A stretch of DNA of 5,563 bases from a virus (lineage: Duplodnaviria; Heunggongvirae; Uroviricota; Caudoviricetes): IMG/VR virus record IMGVR_UViG_2541047438_000019. One strand, written 5' to 3'. A program made the position numbers and the translations under genes. The notes under the pieces were generated by a model that saw only the letters and a program-made list of their open reading frames with translations, did no database searches and was not told where the DNA came from. This document shows, piece after piece, positions 1 to 5,563 of this stretch (positions within the stretch are counted from its first letter, which is position 1; every line of letters begins with the position of its first letter).

Positions 1-208
1 ATGTAATCATTCTGGCAATGCTTAATGCCGCTGCTTTTTCCAGATTGGTGATATCCTGCTCCAGAGCGGACAGATTTTCAGCCTGCTTAGCCCTGGCTTC
101 ATTGGCCCATTTCAGATCCTGCGCCGCATTAATTTTCTGGTGCATCCACTCATAAAGTTCATCATCGGTATAGTCTGGCGCGATGATGACGGGTTCTCGT
201 TTCTGCAT
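1..208 (-). CDS. hypothetical phage protein, N-terminal 69 codons only (gene continues past the left edge of the window)
   Basis: Absent from the ORF track because no stop lies inside the window. Reverse-strand ATG at 208-206 is preceded by AGGAG (complement of 214-218, 5-nt spacer). The frame stays open down to position 2. Translation starts MQKREPVIIAPDYTDDELYEWMHQKINAAQDLKWANEAR. No family recognised. Confidence 0.45.
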   Translation of the reverse strand, partial: MQKREPVIIAPDYTDDELYEWMHQKINAAQDLKWANEARAKQAENLSALEQDITNLEKAAALSIARMIT

Positions 209-300
209 GTCGGCTCCTTGTGGTTAGCGTTGCCTGCTTTTAACCACGTCAGGCGAGGTGGTATCCTCTGAGGGGTCTGTTACTCGAGAGGAAATTGGTT

Positions 301-501
301 ATGAATACAATCAAGTTTTCTTGCCCAGAATGTGGTGGCGAAGTCTTTGACACATCCTTTAAGCCGCAGGGCTCTGACAGTTTCGCGGGAGCCATCTGCA
401 AAAATTGTGGTCACCTTGTAACTGAAGATGAGTCCTCGCAGTTCGATGACGAAATCGTTGACAATATCTTCGGTGCACTCACCAGAGACTTTCTGAAGTA
501 A
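301..501 (+). CDS. small zinc-ribbon protein, 66 aa (CPEC-x21-CKNC, acidic C-terminus), function unknown
   Basis: ATG at 301 with GAGAGGAAA at 286-294 upstream (the track ORF starts at an in-frame TTG at 295). Two CxxC pairs 21 residues apart are unlikely by chance. Codons are mostly common E. coli codons. A perfect hairpin follows downstream. The fully overlapping reverse ORF 280-636 is its codon-for-codon antisense and uses rare Arg codons for 8 of 9 Arg. Confidence 0.5.
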   Translation: MNTIKFSCPECGGEVFDTSFKPQGSDSFAGAICKNCGHLVTEDESSQFDDEIVDNIFGALTRDFLK

Positions 502-547
502 AGGCGCATACCGCTTAGTTACCGCTCTGATAACTCTTACCTGTCCT

Positions 548-582
548 GCAATGGCGCTGATGTCAATATAAAGCGCCATTGC
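548..582 (+). terminator. candidate intrinsic terminator: perfect 11-bp stem GCAATGGCGCT / AGCGCCATTGC with 13-nt loop, followed by TGCTTCTTTGCC
   Basis: Inverted repeat read directly (548-558 pairs with 572-582). The downstream tract is T-rich but interrupted, so terminator function is uncertain. On the minus strand no U-tract follows. Confidence 0.35.
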
Positions 583-819
583 TGCTTCTTTGCCGATCCC
601 GGGATGCCTTCCATTCTGATGTTTGACTTCGCCCACTGAGAAACCCTCTGTTTCCCCTTAACGCCGGGGTAGCGGAACAAAAAACTGCTGCATAGTTATT
701 AAAGTTGAACCCTGCCGTCATGTTCATACGCCTCGGGCTGGCTACTTAACCCCTGACCACTGCCGGGTAACTCGAAGTATTTCCCTGCGTTCTGTGGGGC
801 GGGGTGGGTTGGTATTTTT

Positions 820-862
820 AGTTTAATAAACATTAAACTTAAGTCAAGTAAAAACTAAACCG
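820..862 (-). promoter_or_regulatory. distal operator-like module with a sigma70-like promoter on the minus strand (TTGACT-N16-TAAACT), near-duplicate of the module at 1835-1884
   Basis: GTTTAATAAAC (821-831, palindromic) + ATTAAACT + AAAAACTAAACCG (850-862) matches GTTTATTAAAC + ACTAAACT + AAAAAAACACTAAACCG at 1846-1884. Minus-strand TTGACT (complement of 842-847) and TAAACT (complement of 820-825) are separated by 16 bp. Confidence 0.4.
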
Positions 863-867
863 CGGGA

Positions 868-912
868 CATAACAAACACAACGCTTTTGATAAAGTCGTT
901 GCGGTTGTTATG
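868..912. terminator. imperfect 16-bp hairpin (14 of 16 paired, 13-nt loop) 20 bp downstream of the parE-like stop; possible bidirectional terminator
   Basis: CATAACAAACACAACG (868-883) pairs with CGTTGCGGTTGTTATG (897-912). TTTCTATT follows on the plus strand; on the minus strand a T-rich tract follows after an 8-nt gap. Not folded computationally. Confidence 0.25.
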
Positions 913-931
913 TTTCTATTGGTAGTGAAAG

Positions 932-1210
932 TTAGGGAAACTGGCGTCTTGCGTGGATCACGTTTACTACTTCAACGCTTGATGTTGTTACGCGGTATAG
1001 AATTATATAGTTAGGGTGGGCTACAATCTCACGCAAGCCAGGTACTCTGTCGCTTGGTGGGTATAAATACGGATGTTCGGATAACGGCAGCACACAACCC
1101 CTTAATCGCTGCCATAAGCGTTCAGCCGCATCTATGTCGAAACGAGCAATATAACTAGTTATATCATCTAGGTCGGTATCTGCGCTTTCAAGCCATAACA
1201 CGGGTAACAT
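932..1210 (-). CDS. parE2: ParE/RelE-family type II toxin (ParE2-like), 92 aa
   Basis: Translation MLPVLWLESADTDLDDITSYIARFDIDAAERLWQRLRGCVLPLSEHPYLYPPSDRVPGLREIVAHPNYIILYRVTTSSVEVVNVIHARRQFP has the ParE pattern (DLDDI..YIA, EHPY, PGLRE..V..Y.I.YRV, V.V..V.HARR). ATG at 1210 lies 1 nt after the stop of the upstream small gene. The longer track ORF (to 1306) would overlap that gene; ParE proteins are about 90-100 aa. Confidence 0.85.
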   Translation of the reverse strand: MLPVLWLESADTDLDDITSYIARFDIDAAERLWQRLRGCVLPLSEHPYLYPPSDRVPGLREIVAHPNYIILYRVTTSSVEVVNVIHARRQFP

Positions 1211-1211
1211 T

Positions 1212-1403
1212 TTACTGCTTGCTCCGTTCCTTGCGCATCTTAGCAAAGCGTTCTGCCATTCTGCGCTCAACTTCGTCATGGGGAATTGCTGGGCGCGGAT
1301 CTGCAAGGCTCGTTGCTACTTTCGCACGCAGCCATTCGTTGTAACTGTTTTCTTGTTCAATGGTTTCAAATTCAGAAACCATTGGTGAAAGGGCTCTATT
1401 CAT
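1212..1403 (-). CDS. paaA2: small antitoxin partnered with ParE (PaaA2-like), 63 aa
   Basis: ATG at 1403 preceded by GGAGGA (complement of 1409-1414). Translation MNRALSPMVSEFETIEQENSYNEWLRAKVATSLADPRPAIPHDEVERRMAERFAKMRKERSKQ matches my recollection of the short PaaA2 antitoxin of E. coli O157:H7. It sits immediately upstream of the ParE gene in the same operon. The track N-terminal extension (to 1457) would overlap the regulator gene. Confidence 0.8.
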   Translation of the reverse strand: MNRALSPMVSEFETIEQENSYNEWLRAKVATSLADPRPAIPHDEVERRMAERFAKMRKERSKQ

Positions 1404-1423
1404 GTTTCCTCCGGTTTTATAAC

Positions 1424-1795
1424 TCAGGCGCGGCGGCATTTTTGCGCCGCAATCCATCTCGCTATGAGATCTTCCATTGATTCTTTTTTCTGCTTTAACT
1501 CGCTGATTATCTGGCGTTGCTCATCCTCAGGGAAGGCTGAAAAAATCTGCAATAATTCCAGTTGATTAGACGTTAACCCTGCATGTGGTGGAGAACCCCC
1601 CGGTTGTTCTGCGTATTCCGCATCCAGATACCCTTCCGGCATCCCGTATGTTTGCTCTATTCTTCTGGCAGCCTTTTCTCCAAACGAGGCTCTCCCACTC
1701 ATTAGTTGAGATAGGTAGCTCTTCTCTTTGGGTGGCAGAGTTTTATCTTTAAACCACTCCTTGAGACGTAAACGGCGAATTTCTTTTTTTTGCAT
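1424..1795 (-). CDS. paaR2: CI-like phage repressor / regulator of the toxin-antitoxin operon (PaaR2-like), 123 aa, N-terminal helix-turn-helix, no LexA-type peptidase domain
   Basis: Helix-turn-helix-like N-terminus (KSYLSQLMSGRASFGEKAARRIEQTYGMPEGYLD) resembles phage CI repressor DNA-binding domains. Sits at the cI position, divergent from a cro-like gene across an operator-bearing spacer. Start taken at ATG 1795 (MQKKEIRRL); the track start at GTG 1858 would add a hydrophobic 21-aa extension lying over the operator region. Confidence 0.8.
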   Translation of the reverse strand: MQKKEIRRLRLKEWFKDKTLPPKEKSYLSQLMSGRASFGEKAARRIEQTYGMPEGYLDAEYAEQPGGSPPHAGLTSNQLELLQIFSAFPEDEQRQIISELKQKKESMEDLIARWIAAQKCRRA

Positions 1796-1892
1796 GTGGT
1801 AATTATCTTTAGTAATCACTAAACAAGCAAATACTTGACTTAATGGTTTATTAAACACTAAACTCGCAAAAAAACACTAAACCGAGGAAGGT
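1796..1892. promoter_or_regulatory. divergent promoter/operator region (OR-like) between the repressor gene and the cro-like gene
   Basis: Three direct copies of CACTAAAC (1817-1824, 1856-1863, 1875-1882); palindromes TTTAGT-N4-ACTAAA (1808-1823) and GTTTATTAAAC (1846-1856). Candidate plus-strand promoter TTGACT (1835-1840)-N18-TAAACT (1859-1864) for ydaS. Candidate minus-strand promoter TTGCTT (complement of 1825-1830)-N16-GATAAT (complement of 1803-1808) for paaR2. Confidence 0.6.
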
Positions 1893-2195
1893 ATGACATT
1901 AAAAGAGTTTATTAAATCATTAAGGGTTGGTGATGCTAAGAAATTCGCGGCCAGACTTGGTGTATCGCCATCTTACTTATCGCAAATGGCGTCTGGACGA
2001 ACAGCTATATCTCCAACCCGCGCCCTTATGATCGAATCTGCGACGGAAGGCCAAGTAAGTAGGGCGGAGCTACGACCCCATGATTGGGAGCTTATTTGGC
2101 CTGAGTATGCGAGCGGCATTCGTTTGGGGCAAACACATGTAGTTCATGCTGAAGGTGATTGTAGTGCATGCTTATCTGATGGAGTTGATTCATGA
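1893..2195 (+). CDS. ydaS: Cro-like helix-turn-helix regulator, YdaS family, 100 aa
   Basis: ATG at 1893 preceded by GAGGAAGG. Translation contains FAARLGVSPSYLSQMASGRTAISPTRALMIESATEGQVSRAELRP, the YdaS/Cro-type helix-turn-helix pattern. First gene of the rightward operon, divergent from the repressor. Confidence 0.85.
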   Translation: MTLKEFIKSLRVGDAKKFAARLGVSPSYLSQMASGRTAISPTRALMIESATEGQVSRAELRPHDWELIWPEYASGIRLGQTHVVHAEGDCSACLSDGVDS

Positions 2196-2617
2196 AAATC
2201 AAGCATGAACACATCCGCATGGCGATGAATGTCTGGGCGCATCCGGACGGCGAAAAAGTACCGGCTGCGAAAATTACCAAAGCGTATTTCGAGCTGGGAA
2301 TGACGTTCCCGGAACTGTATGACGACAGCCATCCGGAAGCCATGGCTCGCAATACTCAGAAAATTTTCCGCTGGGTGGAGAAAGACACTCCTGATGCGGT
2401 TAAAAAAATTCAGGCGTTGTTACCAGCGATCGAAAAAGCGATGCCGCCTCCGCTGGTGGCCCGAATGCGCAGCCACAGTTCCGCTTATTTTCGGGAGTTG
2501 GTAGAGACGAAGGAACGGCTGGTGAAAGATATTGATGATTTCGTTGCATCAGCGATCGTTCTGTTCGATCAGATGAATCGTGGTGGCCCGGCAGGAAACA
2601 CTCTGGCTGTGCATTAA
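2192..2617 (+). CDS. ydaT: YdaT-family protein (CII-like regulator of lambdoid/Rac-type prophages), 141 aa
   Basis: Starts MKIKHEHI, typical of YdaT-family proteins. ATG 2192-2194 overlaps the ydaS stop (ATGA at 2192-2195); GGAG at 2181-2184. Conserved ydaS-ydaT gene order. Confidence 0.85.
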   Translation: MKIKHEHIRMAMNVWAHPDGEKVPAAKITKAYFELGMTFPELYDDSHPEAMARNTQKIFRWVEKDTPDAVKKIQALLPAIEKAMPPPLVARMRSHSSAYFRELVETKERLVKDIDDFVASAIVLFDQMNRGGPAGNTLAVH

Positions 2618-2630
2618 TTGGGTAATAAAT

Positions 2631-3140
2631 ATGAGTAATGACAAAAAATTGACACTGAGCGTTTACGAAAACAGTCCGCACATCTGGCGTGGCGGTTTAT
2701 CTGATGTGGAGCTGGCAGAGTGGTTGATACATAAAGCTAATGCGCTGCTCTGGCGTTTGTCAGCCAGAGAACAGCGCAAGGAAACCAGAATAAAGCTGGC
2801 TGATGCAGAAGCGTGTGCCGGGCTTATTGAGGATTATACAAATCTTGGTATTTCTTCAGCAGAGAGTGATCCCATTCAGCCTCTGAGCAGGGAGTCAATC
2901 CAGCACGCTGGTTGTATGGCACATCTTGTAACTGCTCGTCAACATGAGGTGGGTATTGGATCACTTCCGGCGGGATATTCGCTGATTCCAGAGCTGGTTG
3001 AAGCAAGAAAATCAGTTCAGAAAAAGAGAGATGACGCACTTCAATTATTGAGAGAGCACTATGGCGCGATACCAGAATGCGAACAGCGTCGATACCCTGA
3101 AGGTTATGAATGGATGCAGTCTCTTTTTGAAGTTCGCTAA
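2631..3140 (+). CDS. hypothetical protein, 169 aa, no recognisable family
   Basis: ATG at 2631 (MSNDKKLTLSVYEN...) 13 nt after the ydaT stop, weak SD. Same strand as the surrounding early operon and protein-like composition (about 6 percent Gly). The track start at GTG 2580 would overlap ydaT by 38 nt. The strand is not fully resolved: antisense ORF 2824-3279 has a perfect SD (see findings). Confidence 0.5.
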   Translation: MSNDKKLTLSVYENSPHIWRGGLSDVELAEWLIHKANALLWRLSAREQRKETRIKLADAEACAGLIEDYTNLGISSAESDPIQPLSRESIQHAGCMAHLVTARQHEVGIGSLPAGYSLIPELVEARKSVQKKRDDALQLLREHYGAIPECEQRRYPEGYEWMQSLFEVR

Positions 3141-3357
3141 TCAATATGTCGAGACGAAGGTATGTTTCGGCGCGCAGCCAGGCTCTGTAATCCGGGAGCA
3201 TTTCGGGGCTGTTACACCAGCGGTTTGTTGCTGCAACATTTAATACATGAGCCTGATAAAGGCTTTTCAAAAAATACATGTCGAACCTCCTCTGGTTCTG
3301 TCGATTGGGAACCACAGATTATATCCGGAGGAAGGTTCGGCACCAGATGAGGTAGCC

Positions 3358-4449
3358 ATGCGTGATTACGCAAAAGTTTCTCCGCGATTCTGGCTGGGAG
3401 AAACGGGGAGAGAACTTAGAAAGGCGGGTGCAGAAGCGCAAGTTGTTGCTTTTTACCTGATGACATCCCCTCACGCAAATATGCTGGGTTTGTATTACCT
3501 GCCAGTTTTATACCTTGCTCATGAAACCGGGCTTGGTCTGGAAGGGGCTTCAAAGGGGCTTAAAAGGGCTGTTGAAGCTGGTTTTTGTAGCTATGACCAT
3601 GATGCAGAGATGGTCTGGGTCCATGAAATGGCAGCCTGGCAGGTTGGGGAAACGTTGAAGCCTGGCGATAACCGTTGTGCAGGTGTCAGGAATGAGTATG
3701 CATCATTACCTGAAAACGCTTTTCTGTCAGTGTTTTACGACAGATATAAAACGGATTTCCATCTGGATGTGAGGCGGAATAATAGCCGAAATTCGGTAAG
3801 GGGCTTCGAAGGGGCTTTTAAGGGGCTTCGAAGCCAAGAACAGGAACAGGAGCAGGAGAAAGAACAGGAACAGGACAAAAACACTATGGTTCATGGCAAA
3901 AAAAACACCACGAACCAGGCAGGGGATGTTCAGACCGTCAATCCTGGTCAGCCAGCAGGCACGACACCGGAAGCCGATTCGGGCGCTGTGCAGCAGGTGA
4001 TGACCGCAGGGTCGGAGCAATCACACCAACTGCAGCAGCCTGAAGCCGATTCCGCCATTCAGCGGGAAGCCGATCGGGTAGTCCCGGAAAGCACCGGGCA
4101 GTCTGTGGGACGAGTGGATTATCCGGATGTGTTCGAACAGGTCTGGCGGGAATACCCGTTGCGTGCTGGGGCAAACCCGAAGAAATCCGCTTTCAGTGCC
4201 TGGAAGGCCAGATTGCGCGAGGGGGTGCCACCAGAGACCATGCTGGATGGTGTGAGGCGTTACGCGAGATACCTGGCGGCGACCGGGAAAGCGGGAACGG
4301 AATTTGTTCAGCGAGCGACGACGTTTTTTGGGCCGGACCGGAATTTTGAAAACCCCTGGTTGCTCCCGGTAAGCGGCACGAACAACCAGCGTTGTGTGAA
4401 TCATATTTCTGAACCGGATACCGAAATTCCGCCGGGATTCAGGGGGTGA
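3358..4449 (+). CDS. phage replication initiation / replisome-organiser protein (O-like role), 363 aa, with low-complexity linker
   Basis: Sits immediately upstream of and coupled to a DnaC-like loader gene. C-terminal segment FEQVWREYPLRAGANPKKSAFSAWKARLREG...FFGPDRNFENPW resembles the conserved motif of phage replisome-organiser proteins as I recall it. Iteron-like DNA repeats lie inside the gene. Start chosen at ATG 3358 (GAGGT 5 nt upstream); an in-frame ATG at 3247 lacks an SD and is the alternative. Confidence 0.7.
   Translation: MRDYAKVSPRFWLGETGRELRKAGAEAQVVAFYLMTSPHANMLGLYYLPVLYLAHETGLGLEGASKGLKRAVEAGFCSYDHDAEMVWVHEMAAWQVGETLKPGDNRCAGVRNEYASLPENAFLSVFYDRYKTDFHLDVRRNNSRNSVRGFEGAFKGLRSQEQEQEQEKEQEQDKNTMVHGKKNTTNQAGDVQTVNPGQPAGTTPEADSGAVQQVMTAGSEQSHQLQQPEADSAIQREADRVVPESTGQSVGRVDYPDVFEQVWREYPLRAGANPKKSAFSAWKARLREGVPPETMLDGVRRYARYLAATGKAGTEFVQRATTFFGPDRNFENPWLLPVSGTNNQRCVNHISEPDTEIPPGFRG
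3542..3570. repeat. iteron-like direct repeats, cluster 1: AAGGGGCTT / AAAGGGGCTT / AAAAGGGCT at 10-11-bp spacing
   Basis: Read directly: GAAGGGGCTTCAAAGGGGCTTAAAAGGGCT. The repeat period is not a multiple of 3, so codon repetition does not explain it. Confidence 0.5.
3798..3830. repeat. iteron-like direct repeats, cluster 2: three tandem 11-bp units AAGGGGCTT(C/T)(G/T); candidate replication-origin core inside the initiator gene
   Basis: AAGGGGCTTCG (3798-3808), AAGGGGCTTTT (3809-3819), AAGGGGCTTCG (3820-3830), one helical turn apart, followed by a hexanucleotide repeat and an A-rich stretch. Confidence 0.55.
3838..3876. repeat. tandem hexanucleotide repeat (GAACAG/GAGCAG) encoding an EQEQEQEKEQEQ linker
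   Basis: GAACAGGAACAGGAGCAGGAGAAAGAACAGGAACAGGAC read directly, in frame with the replication gene. Confidence 0.8.
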
Positions 4450-4455
4450 TGTGGC

Positions 4456-5202
4456 ATGAAAAACATTGCGGCAGCCGGGGTTCTTGAACGTATTCGCAGA
4501 CTTGCACCACAGGCGTCGGTTCCACCGTACCGGACGGTGGAGGAGTGGCGGGAATGGCAACTTGCTGAAGGACGAAAACGCAGCGAGGAGATTAACCGCC
4601 AGAATCACCAGTTGCGGGTGGAAAAAATCCTGAATCGTTCGGGCATCCAGCCTCTGCACAGCAAATGCTCGTTTGCGAATTATCAGGTGCAGAACGACGG
4701 GCAAAAATACGCGCTGAGCCAGGCCAAATCCATAGCTGACGAACTGATGACCGGGTGCACGAATTTTGTGTTCAGCGGTAAAACCGGCACCGGGAAAAAT
4801 CACCTTGCAGCGGCGATGGGTAACCGGCTGATGGCGAAGGGGCGCAGCGTGATTATCGTCACCGTGTCTGATGTCATGAGCGTGTTGCATGACAGCTACG
4901 ACAACGGCAAATCCGGGGAAAAATTTTTACAGGAGCTTTGCAGTGTTGATTTGCTGGTCCTGGATGAAATAGGCGTTCAGCGGGAGACGAAAAACGAGCA
5001 GGTGGTATTACACCAGATAATTGATCGCCGGACAGCATCACTGTGCAGTGTCGGGATGTTAACAAACCTGAATCATGCCGCAATGAGTACACTTCTTGGT
5101 GAGAGGATTATGGACCGCATGACCATGAACGGTGGTCGATGGGTGACGTTTAACTGGGATAGCTGGCGTCCAAATGTCAGCAATATGAGGGTTGTGAAGT
5201 AA
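4456..5202 (+). CDS. DnaC-like replicative helicase loader (IstB/DnaC AAA+ ATPase), 248 aa
   Basis: Walker A FSGKTGTGKNHLAAA and Walker B LLVLDEIG. Overall resemblance to E. coli DnaC and the Rac prophage DnaC paralogue. AGGGGG at 4441-4446, 9 nt before ATG 4456, which lies 6 nt after the stop of the initiator gene. Confidence 0.9.
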   Translation: MKNIAAAGVLERIRRLAPQASVPPYRTVEEWREWQLAEGRKRSEEINRQNHQLRVEKILNRSGIQPLHSKCSFANYQVQNDGQKYALSQAKSIADELMTGCTNFVFSGKTGTGKNHLAAAMGNRLMAKGRSVIIVTVSDVMSVLHDSYDNGKSGEKFLQELCSVDLLVLDEIGVQRETKNEQVVLHQIIDRRTASLCSVGMLTNLNHAAMSTLLGERIMDRMTMNGGRWVTFNWDSWRPNVSNMRVVK

Positions 5203-5223
5203 TTTTGTCCGGAGGAAATTTTA

Positions 5224-5563
5224 ATGGAAACCGTATCTGACGCACTGAAAGCACTGAAAAAAGCCTCTTCACATGTGGTGGCAGCTCGCCTTGGAATCAG
5301 TCGTGAAGAGGCTGTCAACGAGCTGTGGGAACTCAAAATAAATGGCGTCGTTGATAAAACTGGTCACACCTGGTTTCTGGCTGGCGAAGGTGAATCCCGG
5401 GTAACCGAAGAGCGGCCAGTAAAATCTGAAGCACAGGATATGCTGACCGGGGAGGTCGAACAAAAAGTTACCGCAGACATGATGATTGAGTTTATCGGTC
5501 AGGATGGGGCTAAAACGTGTGAGGAACTGGCGGGTAAGTTCGGTGTCAGTACTCGCAAGGTTG
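5224..5563 (+). CDS. hypothetical phage protein, N-terminal 113 codons (gene continues past the right edge of the window)
   Basis: Absent from the ORF track because there is no stop in the window. ATG at 5224 preceded by GGAGG (5211-5215, 8-nt spacer); open frame to the window end. Translation METVSDALKALKKASSHVVAARLGISREEAVNELWELKINGVV...GAKTCEELAGKFGVSTRKV has two helix-turn-helix-like segments. Confidence 0.55.
   Translation, partial: METVSDALKALKKASSHVVAARLGISREEAVNELWELKINGVVDKTGHTWFLAGEGESRVTEERPVKSEAQDMLTGEVEQKVTADMMIEFIGQDGAKTCEELAGKFGVSTRKV

Follow-up and report, generated by a model that had tools for sequence, protein, structure and literature searches.

The locus at 932–1795 of the 5563-bp window (the whole stretch of DNA that was analysed) is almost certainly the paaR2-paaA2-parE2 operon, or RAE2, from the immunity region of a lambdoid E. 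coli prophage of CP-933P type. By all of the sequence criteria tested, it is a member, in fact the type example, of the PaaR2-PaaA2-ParE2 system. The identical locus from prophage CP-933P of strain EDL933 was studied by Jurenas et al. 2021 (mBio, PMC8630535), and a small dedicated literature covers its genetics (2010), four sets of solved structures and a regulatory dissection (2021, 2023). The first-pass annotation of this DNA had assigned the arrangement to CP-933P of E. coli O157:H7 and had supposed that it was probably not new. Both points were correct. The interpretation, including the analogy with rexAB, is already in print and the locus adds nothing new to the system. Its remaining interest concerns what ParE2 acts on in the cell, and which function is served by a toxin wired to a prophage repressor, be it retention, protecting the immunity region or anti-phage defence.

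Gene organization and protein identities

The ORF table and translations present three co-directional ORFs on the minus strand (Table 1). A gap of 20 nt (1404–1423) separates paaR2 from paaA2 and a gap of 1 nt (1211) separates paaA2 from parE2, in exact agreement with the regulator, 63-aa antitoxin and toxin described in the first-pass annotation. A GGAGGA Shine-Dalgarno sequence can be read directly in the sequence at 5–6 nt ahead of the paaA2 ATG. Since parE2 starts one base past the paaA2 stop, translational coupling of the two genes is plausible. Three longer ORFs, starting with TTG at 1306 (124 aa), ATG at 1457 (81 aa) and GTG at 1858 (144 aa), were rejected in favor of the published starts, which agree with the crystallised constructs and, for PaaR2, with N-terminal sequencing that gave MQKKE (PMC8630535).

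Table 1. Features of the RAE2 operon and its surroundings in the 5563-bp window.
Feature	Coordinates	Strand	Basis or remark
PL933P with OL operators, leftward	820..865	-	Downstream of parE2; hexamers identical to PR
Hairpin, candidate operon terminator (t_imm analogue)	867..913	-	Lies 19 nt past the parE2 stop, just before PL
parE2, ParE-family toxin, 92 aa	932..1210	-	PDB identity and Pfam
paaA2, antitoxin, 63 aa, lacking a DNA-binding domain	1212..1403	-	PDB identity, Pfam and NCBIfam
paaR2, CI-analogue repressor/activator, leaderless, 123 aa, MQKKEIRR...	1424..1795 (ATG at 1795)	-	PDB identity and published N-terminus
Divergent control region: OR operators, PRM933P (leftward), PR933P (rightward)	1796..1892	.	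97 bp, exactly as in PMC8630535
ydaS, Cro analogue, 100 aa	1893..2195	+	Pfam YdaS_toxin/HTH_3; identical to the CP-933P-type copy
YdaT operator OM, TTGATTCATGAAAATCAA	2185..2202	.	PRE933P region; spans the ydaS stop and ydaT start
ydaT, CII analogue, 141 aa, hybrid allele	2192..2617	+	Pfam YdaT_toxin; phrog_163
Crossover interval; left arm of CP-933P/Sp12 type, right arm of Sp4/CP-933M type	2233..2341	.	Inside ydaT

Profile and sequence searches of the three proteins, which had been suggested as a check on the ParE-type assignment, matched ParE, PaaA2 and PaaR2. Over its full length of 92 aa, ParE2 is 100% identical to PDB 5cw7_B / 5czf_C ("Plasmid stabilization protein ParE"), and the product matches Pfam PF05016 ParE_toxin with E = 1.9e-16 (60.9 bits against a cut-off of 23). 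Residues 2–63 of the antitoxin are identical to PDB 3zbe_A (PaaA2). The 63-aa product also exceeds the cut-offs of Pfam PF21217 PaaA2 (E = 1e-19, 70.7 bits against 27) and NCBIfam NF050103 (84 bits against 50), and no helix-turn-helix or ribbon-helix-helix domain was found in it by Pfam. The upstream regulator had been called CI-like, and this is borne out by residues 1–66 of PaaR2, which are identical to PDB 7nkv_A and 8c3k, "Phage repressor protein CI"; beyond this point the deposited chains run into a His tag. The PDB identities of 100% therefore refer to native residues, and in the case of PaaR2 they cover the N-terminal domain. No Pfam domain, including the S24 peptidase, was found on PaaR2, and its C-terminal part (72–119) weakly resembles the C-terminus of DicA (NCBIfam, 28 bits against a cut-off of 101). 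With Pfam scores well above the cut-offs and identity to solved PDB chains, the assignment of the three-gene operon is not attributable to chance.

According to Hallez et al. 2010, as cited in PMC8630535, paaR2, paaA2 and parE2 form an operon. In the same account, ParE2 is found together with the nucleoid and triggers the SOS response, whereas PaaA2 lacks a DNA-binding domain and is a substrate of the proteases ClpAP and ClpXP. The toxicity of ParE2 and its neutralisation by the cognate PaaA2 are credited to the same study in PMC8630535 and PMC4803016. PaaA2 is intrinsically disordered and wraps around ParE2; PMC8251345 cites Sterckx 2016 for evidence against binding of ParE2 to GyrA.

The control region and transcription of the operon

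The published regulatory elements, namely the 97-bp operator region, PR, PL and the YdaT site, were all found in the window. The 97 bp between the start codons of paaR2 and ydaS hold both PRM933P and PR933P (PMC8630535). From a consensus scan, the PR hexamers are TTGACT (1835–1840) and TAAACT (1859–1864). The same two hexamers recur on the minus strand at PL (TTGACT, 847–842; TAAACT, 825–820), and PMC8630535 likewise describes the PL933P hexamers as identical to those of PR. The PRM -10 element may be GATAAT at 1802–1807 on the minus strand, as read from the sequence. By 5' RACE, the PRM transcript begins at the paaR2 ATG, giving a leaderless message like that of lambda cI (PMC8630535).

Repeat analysis identified a direct repeat within OR (1808–1831 / 1847–1870) and inverted repeats that tie OL to OR (821–850 / 1832–1856). 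All four copies of the half-site ACTAAAC in the window (854, 1818, 1857 and 1876) lie at OL or OR; chance would give 0.43 copies. PaaR2 and YdaS both footprint on the 97-bp region, which contains four 18-bp repeats, in a study that also used EMSA (PMC8630535). PaaR2 represses PR and PL and activates its own PRM at low level, and YdaS represses PRM preferentially (PMC8630535).

The first-pass annotation had named YdaS and YdaT as analogues of Cro and CII, a view that is published in PMC8630535 and PMC9986795. In the window, YdaT matches phrog_163 "CII-like transcriptional activator" with E = 4e-45. Its operator, TTGATTN6AATCAA, was defined by footprinting (Prolic-Kalinsek et al. 2023, PMC9986795) and has one exact match in the window (Table 1), against 0.00 expected by chance. 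YdaT activates a leftward promoter, PRE933P, located between ydaS and ydaT (PMC8630535). In experiments that included promoter-gfp fusions, PaaR2, YdaS and YdaT were shown to be analogues of CI, Cro and CII, and the switch is bistable and heritable (PMC8630535).

In these data, which were obtained with identical sequences, a CI/Cro/CII-like switch governs a leftward transcript encoding the repressor analogue, the antitoxin and the toxin. YdaS competes with PaaR2 for the operators, making the switch bistable, and YdaT binds TTGATTN6AATCAA at the ydaS/ydaT junction and turns on leftward PRE. The first-pass annotation had proposed that the toxin is made from the lysogenic repressor transcript. 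The published operon, transcribed from the PRM analogue, supports this proposal in so far as the toxin lies on that transcript. The linkage is not exclusive, however, as a paaA2-parE2 reporter is on in both the "lysogenic" (RAE2-on) and "lytic" (ydaST-on) states (PMC8630535).

Transcription of paaA2-parE2 mainly from a promoter of its own, or from another alternative promoter, would also explain a reporter at the 3' end of the operon that is on in both states of the switch. PRE933P, activated by YdaT, supplies another leftward transcript, and a review states that the PaaA-ParE complex partly represses the paaR promoter (PMC4803016), which may be counted on the same side. A consensus scan of the minus strand from 1404 to 1795, including the interior of paaR2, found no σ70-like promoter, however, and the gaps of 20 nt and 1 nt leave no intergenic room for one. 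In addition, the earlier expression studies are cited in PMC8630535 as showing an operon, and PRE transcripts would still cross paaR2. A main promoter other than PRM is thus very improbable, and transcription from the PRM analogue as part of the operon is the reading retained here.

At the other end of the operon, a hairpin with 22-nt arms that are 82% complementary lies between parE2 and PL (Table 1). As RNA it folds with -24 kcal/mol (z = -4.7), and none of 200 shuffled sequences fold as well. A consensus terminator scan did not call this hairpin, which has no immediate T-run. It is offered here, beyond what is said in the cited papers, as a candidate analogue of the lambda t_imm terminator. 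An Rfam scan of the whole window (E ≤ 1) identified no known RNA family, its sole match being a spurious miRNA on the same hairpin. A nut-like or other regulatory structure in the conserved PL leader (645–815, minus strand) was considered and dropped, as this segment is no stabler than its shuffles (z = +1.8).

Distribution and mosaic structure

Many E. coli O157:H7 chromosomes carry window positions 840–1900 with 100% identity. Of 5426 complete E. coli genomes, 633 (approximately 12%) have this segment, with at least 99% identity in 574 of the 633. In an annotated O157:H7 genome, it is flanked on one side by ydfC and dicB, and on the other by a YdaS-like regulator and a "toxin YdaT family protein". 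The cassette also occurs, at 98.3% identity, in the isolated coliphage Evi (LR597642.1), which was obtained from infant faeces (PMC10910852). The ParE2 ORF of Evi is intact and encodes a 100% identical protein, yet it is unannotated in LR597642.1.

The complete 5563 bp were contiguous in none of the 5426 complete E. coli genomes. Positions 1–2341 match the CP-933P/Sp12 locus with a single SNP, at 125, and positions 2181–5563 match the Sp4/CP-933M-type prophage of the same O157:H7 genomes at 99.97%, with a mismatch at 2232. Judged from these alignments, the window is a natural mosaic and not canonical CP-933P. The crossover falls near the 5' end of ydaT, within 109 bp over which the two prophages do not differ, bounded by a P-type base at 2232 and an M-type base at 2342. 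As a result, YdaT is a hybrid that carries 19 substitutions relative to the CP-933P-type copy, from residue 51 onward.

Two other origins of the junction were considered. An assembly chimera over the 109-bp repeat was rejected, as the junction type is present in four complete genomes and several independent draft assemblies. The four complete genomes are from bovine E. coli and match at 98.9%, and one draft contig aligns with the window over its whole length at 99.95%. A chromosomal inversion between Sp4 and Sp12 in O157:H7 is unsupported, since the inversions documented in the literature searched are Sp4-Sp14 and Sp9-Sp12, and 0 of 5426 complete genomes have the contiguous window.

Exchange of this kind is seen on both sides of the cassette. 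The exact YdaT protein occurs on 476 contigs, adjoining both paaR1-type and paaR2-type cassettes. In other loci, a Rac-like left arm with kilR, ydaE and recT gives way to the cassette at 651 or 782. Left-hand breakpoints thus fall at these two positions and right-hand ones either within ydaT or where this gene ends, and across different prophage backbones the cassette is always linked to its cognate regulator. The cassette and ydaS thus behave as one module with exchangeable flanks, an arrangement that amounts to ordinary lambdoid mosaicism and is compatible with addiction.

Role of the toxin-antitoxin pair

The first-pass annotation had left the choice between prophage retention and defence against superinfecting phage to experiment. 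Retention has been tested in the form of plasmid stabilisation: an unstable mini-F was stabilised by the RAE2 and ydaST-RAE2 loci as efficiently as by ccdAB, by post-segregational killing (PMC8630535), and the effect depends on ClpAP/ClpXP (PMC8630535). In the cited work on identical sequences, PaaA2 folds onto ParE2 and neutralises it while being itself labile to proteases; once the locus is lost, ParE2 is freed and the cell is killed or arrested. The role of the pair is thus somewhat more probably than otherwise one of addiction, where loss or replacement of the immunity module would end the supply of labile PaaA2, ParE2 would poison the cell, and the immunity region or prophage would be stabilised. 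Stabilisation was demonstrated on plasmids, namely mini-F (PMC8630535), and SOS induction by ParE2 went undetected in both transcriptional states at steady state, which speaks against this role. On a chromosome, addiction would be predicted to work against a deletion of the immunity region or its exchange for a heteroimmune one, which is also what the authors of PMC8630535 propose, in that a toxin-antitoxin pair inserted into the immunity region would make this region addictive. In the genomes compared, the integrity of the cassette is kept while both flanks are exchanged among prophages, as would be expected of a travelling unit.

Alternatively, paaA2-parE2 may be a selfish passenger that was inserted behind the repressor and is kept only since losing it kills the cell, while neither prophage nor host would gain from it. 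PaaA2 would have shed its DNA-binding domain and come to rely on the phage repressor for control of its transcription. The complete lack of a DNA-binding domain in PaaA2, the suggested insertion into the immunity region and the lack of a steady-state phenotype (both PMC8630535) are all in keeping with such a history. The paralogue paaR1-paaA1-parE1, which occupies the equivalent position with a ParE that is only 67% identical, would likewise fit an old self-maintaining module. Against this, the cassette is near-invariant and always accompanied by its cognate regulator, a pattern that fits, without proving, selection on the immunity module. A passenger of no benefit to its carrier is considered unlikely, and addiction on behalf of the immunity region or prophage is the favored role.

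The position of the pair next to the repressor gene has also invited comparison with the exclusion genes of lambda. The first-pass annotation had placed the pair where rexAB lies beside cI, and Prolic-Kalinsek et al. 2023 (PMC9986795) state explicitly that rexA-rexB is replaced by paaA2-parE2. A defensive role like that of rexAB would have phage shut-off or proteolysis lead to the decay of PaaA2, after which ParE2 would damage DNA or halt replication before the phage cycle ends. This would be compatible with addiction. Apart from position and co-transcription with the repressor, it draws on the protease lability of PaaA2, a property exploited by defence systems based on toxin-antitoxin pairs, and on the presence of the cassette in phage Evi as well as in bacterial genomes. 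None of PaaR2, PaaA2 and ParE2 matched a PADLOC defence model at E ≤ 0.01, however, and no homology with RexA or RexB was found, so the likeness of paaA2-parE2 to rexAB is positional only. Furthermore, no phage-challenge test of PaaR2-PaaA2-ParE2 was found in the literature searched, and ParE2 was not activated under the conditions tested in PMC8630535, where SOS induction, taken as ParE2 activity, went undetected in either transcriptional state at steady state. Defence against superinfection is therefore rated as quite improbable, behind addiction as the preferred role.

A more speculative extension is that the ParE2 pair, being wired into the repressor transcript, serves as a guard of the immunity module, killing the cell when a superinfecting or recombining heteroimmune lambdoid phage replaces or silences the module, or aborting infection by an unrelated phage upon decay of PaaA2. 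With the cassette intact and both of its flanks exchanged, the mosaic structure fits this idea, which remains doubtful. The idea is directly testable in phage Evi, which carries the cassette. More generally, Evi with its identical toxin, and the natural recombinants that keep the cassette while swapping flanks, make the questions of role and target somewhat easier to approach experimentally.

Comparison with known systems

The lambdoid immunity layout is shared with racR-ydaS-ydaT of Rac and dicA-dicC of Qin in E. coli K-12, which have regulators of the YdaS/YdaT family and a leftward operon toward ydfC and dicB. Unlike the window, neither of these immunity regions has a toxin-antitoxin pair behind the repressor. 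Among toxin-antitoxin systems, classical parDE, as in plasmid RK2 and Caulobacter ParDE, shares the ParE fold and Pfam family with ParE2, and the C-terminal region of the antitoxin wraps the toxin as PaaA2 does. ParE2 belongs to the ParE family by fold and profile, and gyrase poisoning, the textbook activity of this family, is for ParE2 a putative activity at most, given the evidence on GyrA cited in PMC8251345.

With lambda cI-rexA-rexB, the locus shares gene order and logic in that a leaderless repressor message is followed by two co-transcribed passengers. Also lambda-like are the divergent PRM and PR promoters with operators in common, the PL/OL set at a distance and the activation of a leftward promoter by a protein of CII type. 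In contrast, there is no sequence homology between the two loci, the passengers are a ParE toxin and its antitoxin rather than RexA and RexB, and the control region of CP-933P type has four 18-bp repeats where lambda has three operators. PaaR2 has neither an S24 autopeptidase domain nor detectable homology with CI, and is CI-like in action without being a member of the CI family. As is also stated in PMC8630535, PaaR2 lacks the peptidase motif, and it is thus not cleavable in the SOS response.

A paralogous cassette is paaR1-paaA1-parE1 of CP-933M/Sp4, which has the same gene order and position beside ydaS/ydaT-like genes. Relative to the window, 62 of 92 residues are identical in ParE and 39 of 56 in PaaA. 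PaaR1 and PaaR2 are alike only in their C-terminal halves (41 of 95 identical) and their N-terminal HTH domains are unrelated; the YdaS of CP-933M/Sp4 is unrelated to that of the window as well, which points to a different immunity specificity. The antitoxins of the paralogous cassettes do not cross-neutralise (Hallez et al. 2010, as cited in PMC4803016).

CP-933P itself (Sp12 of Sakai) does not differ from the window in PaaR2, PaaA2, ParE2 or YdaS, nor in the operators, the promoters PR and PL or the YdaT site. Unlike CP-933P, the window is of Sp4/CP-933M type from ydaT codon 51 rightward, with an ORF of the ECs1072 family and a different DnaD-like replication initiator. Overlapping ORFs, with candidates on either strand, lie at 2631–3279. 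Given this right arm, the host prophage is a mosaic relative of CP-933P that carries the RAE2 operon in its identical form.

Mosaic organization of the window

The window joins sequence from two paralogous prophages of the O157:H7 type in a mosaic. The arms listed in the table meet within the start of ydaT, and the YdaT protein encoded here is a hybrid produced by the crossover. The whole window was found in none of the complete genomes searched. A junction of the same type occurs in four complete bovine E. coli genomes (98.9%), and a draft contig, L007, matches the window at 99.95%.

Features of the window and of related loci (window coordinates unless another record is named)
Feature	Position	Strand	Description
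Left arm	1-2341		CP-933P/Sp12-type
Right arm	2181-5563		Sp4/CP-933M-type
Crossover junction	2233-2341		109-bp identical stretch, ydaT 5' end
Small CxxC...CxxC protein	301-501	+	NCBIfam ECs_2282 family putative zinc-binding protein
Conserved stretch	651-813		~160 nt, directly downstream of PL
Hairpin	867-913		between parE2 stop and PL933P; 22-nt arms, -24 kcal/mol, z=-4.7
PaaR2 residues 72-119	gene at 1424-1795	-	weak likeness to DicA C-terminus
Plus-strand long ORF	2631-3140	+	phrog_8304, E=4e-120
Minus-strand long ORF	2827-3279	-	NCBIfam 'ECs1072 family phage-associated protein', E=2e-30
ParE2 ORF of phage Evi	L011 (LR597642.1) 6093-6371	-	protein 100% identical
L005	GCA_000752655.1 contig CCQA01000237.1, 1-6426		extra modules upstream of the RAE2 cassette

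To the right of the junction, the two long ORFs overlap in antisense and each has database support. The PGAP annotation of the pair selects the minus strand. Across nine related loci, only three SNPs fall within the overlap, and each of them changes the protein in the plus frame but is silent in the minus frame; this pattern gives a weak hint in favor of the minus-strand ORF.

The leftward promoter region

The hairpin that separates parE2 from the leftward promoter PL933P is stable despite its AT-rich composition and is a candidate terminator of the repressor-toxin-antitoxin operon, analogous to λ t_imm. A canonical T-run is absent from it, and no mention of the hairpin was found in the cited literature on the paaR2-paaA2-parE2 locus.

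The stretch that follows PL is 95–99% conserved across prophages that differ in immunity type and in left arm. Sp4-type and Rac-like loci carry this stretch as the 5' leader of a DUF1391 (ydfA-like) gene, which the window lacks. RNA structure prediction on this PL leader returned nothing significant (z=+1.8) and a search of the stretch against Rfam gave no match. Further along, between PL and ydfC, the gene for the small CxxC protein runs in the opposite direction to PL transcription; the protein scores 57 bits against its NCBIfam family (cut-off 37).

The cassette in other genomes

The paaR2-paaA2-parE2 cassette is present in the isolated coliphage Evi with a DNA identity of 98.3%, where the ParE2 ORF is unannotated in the database record. 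Thus, the cassette is not restricted to cryptic prophages, and Evi offers a tractable phage model for the system. In contig L005, two more immunity-like modules (HTH repressor / YdaS-like / YdaT-like) stand in tandem upstream of the cassette, as does a HigB-HTH pair, and the contig shows a threefold repetition of PL-leader fragments. Immunity regions may truly be arrayed in tandem there, or the contig may be misassembled. The sole PLSDB 'plasmid' match for the cassette is a non-mobilizable E. coli record of 1.41 Mb (CP061244.1), probably a piece of chromosome that was deposited under the plasmid label; a copy on a genuine plasmid is less likely.

Comparison of PaaR2 with DicA and PaaR1

The weak resemblance of the PaaR2 C-terminal half to the DicA C-terminus falls below the cut-off of the NCBIfam model (PRK09706, E=1.4e-6). 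This half is also the sole part conserved with PaaR1, and the two observations suggest a shared oligomerization domain lying under swapped HTH specificity domains. Between the two paralogous repressors, conservation is confined to the C-terminal half (41/95).
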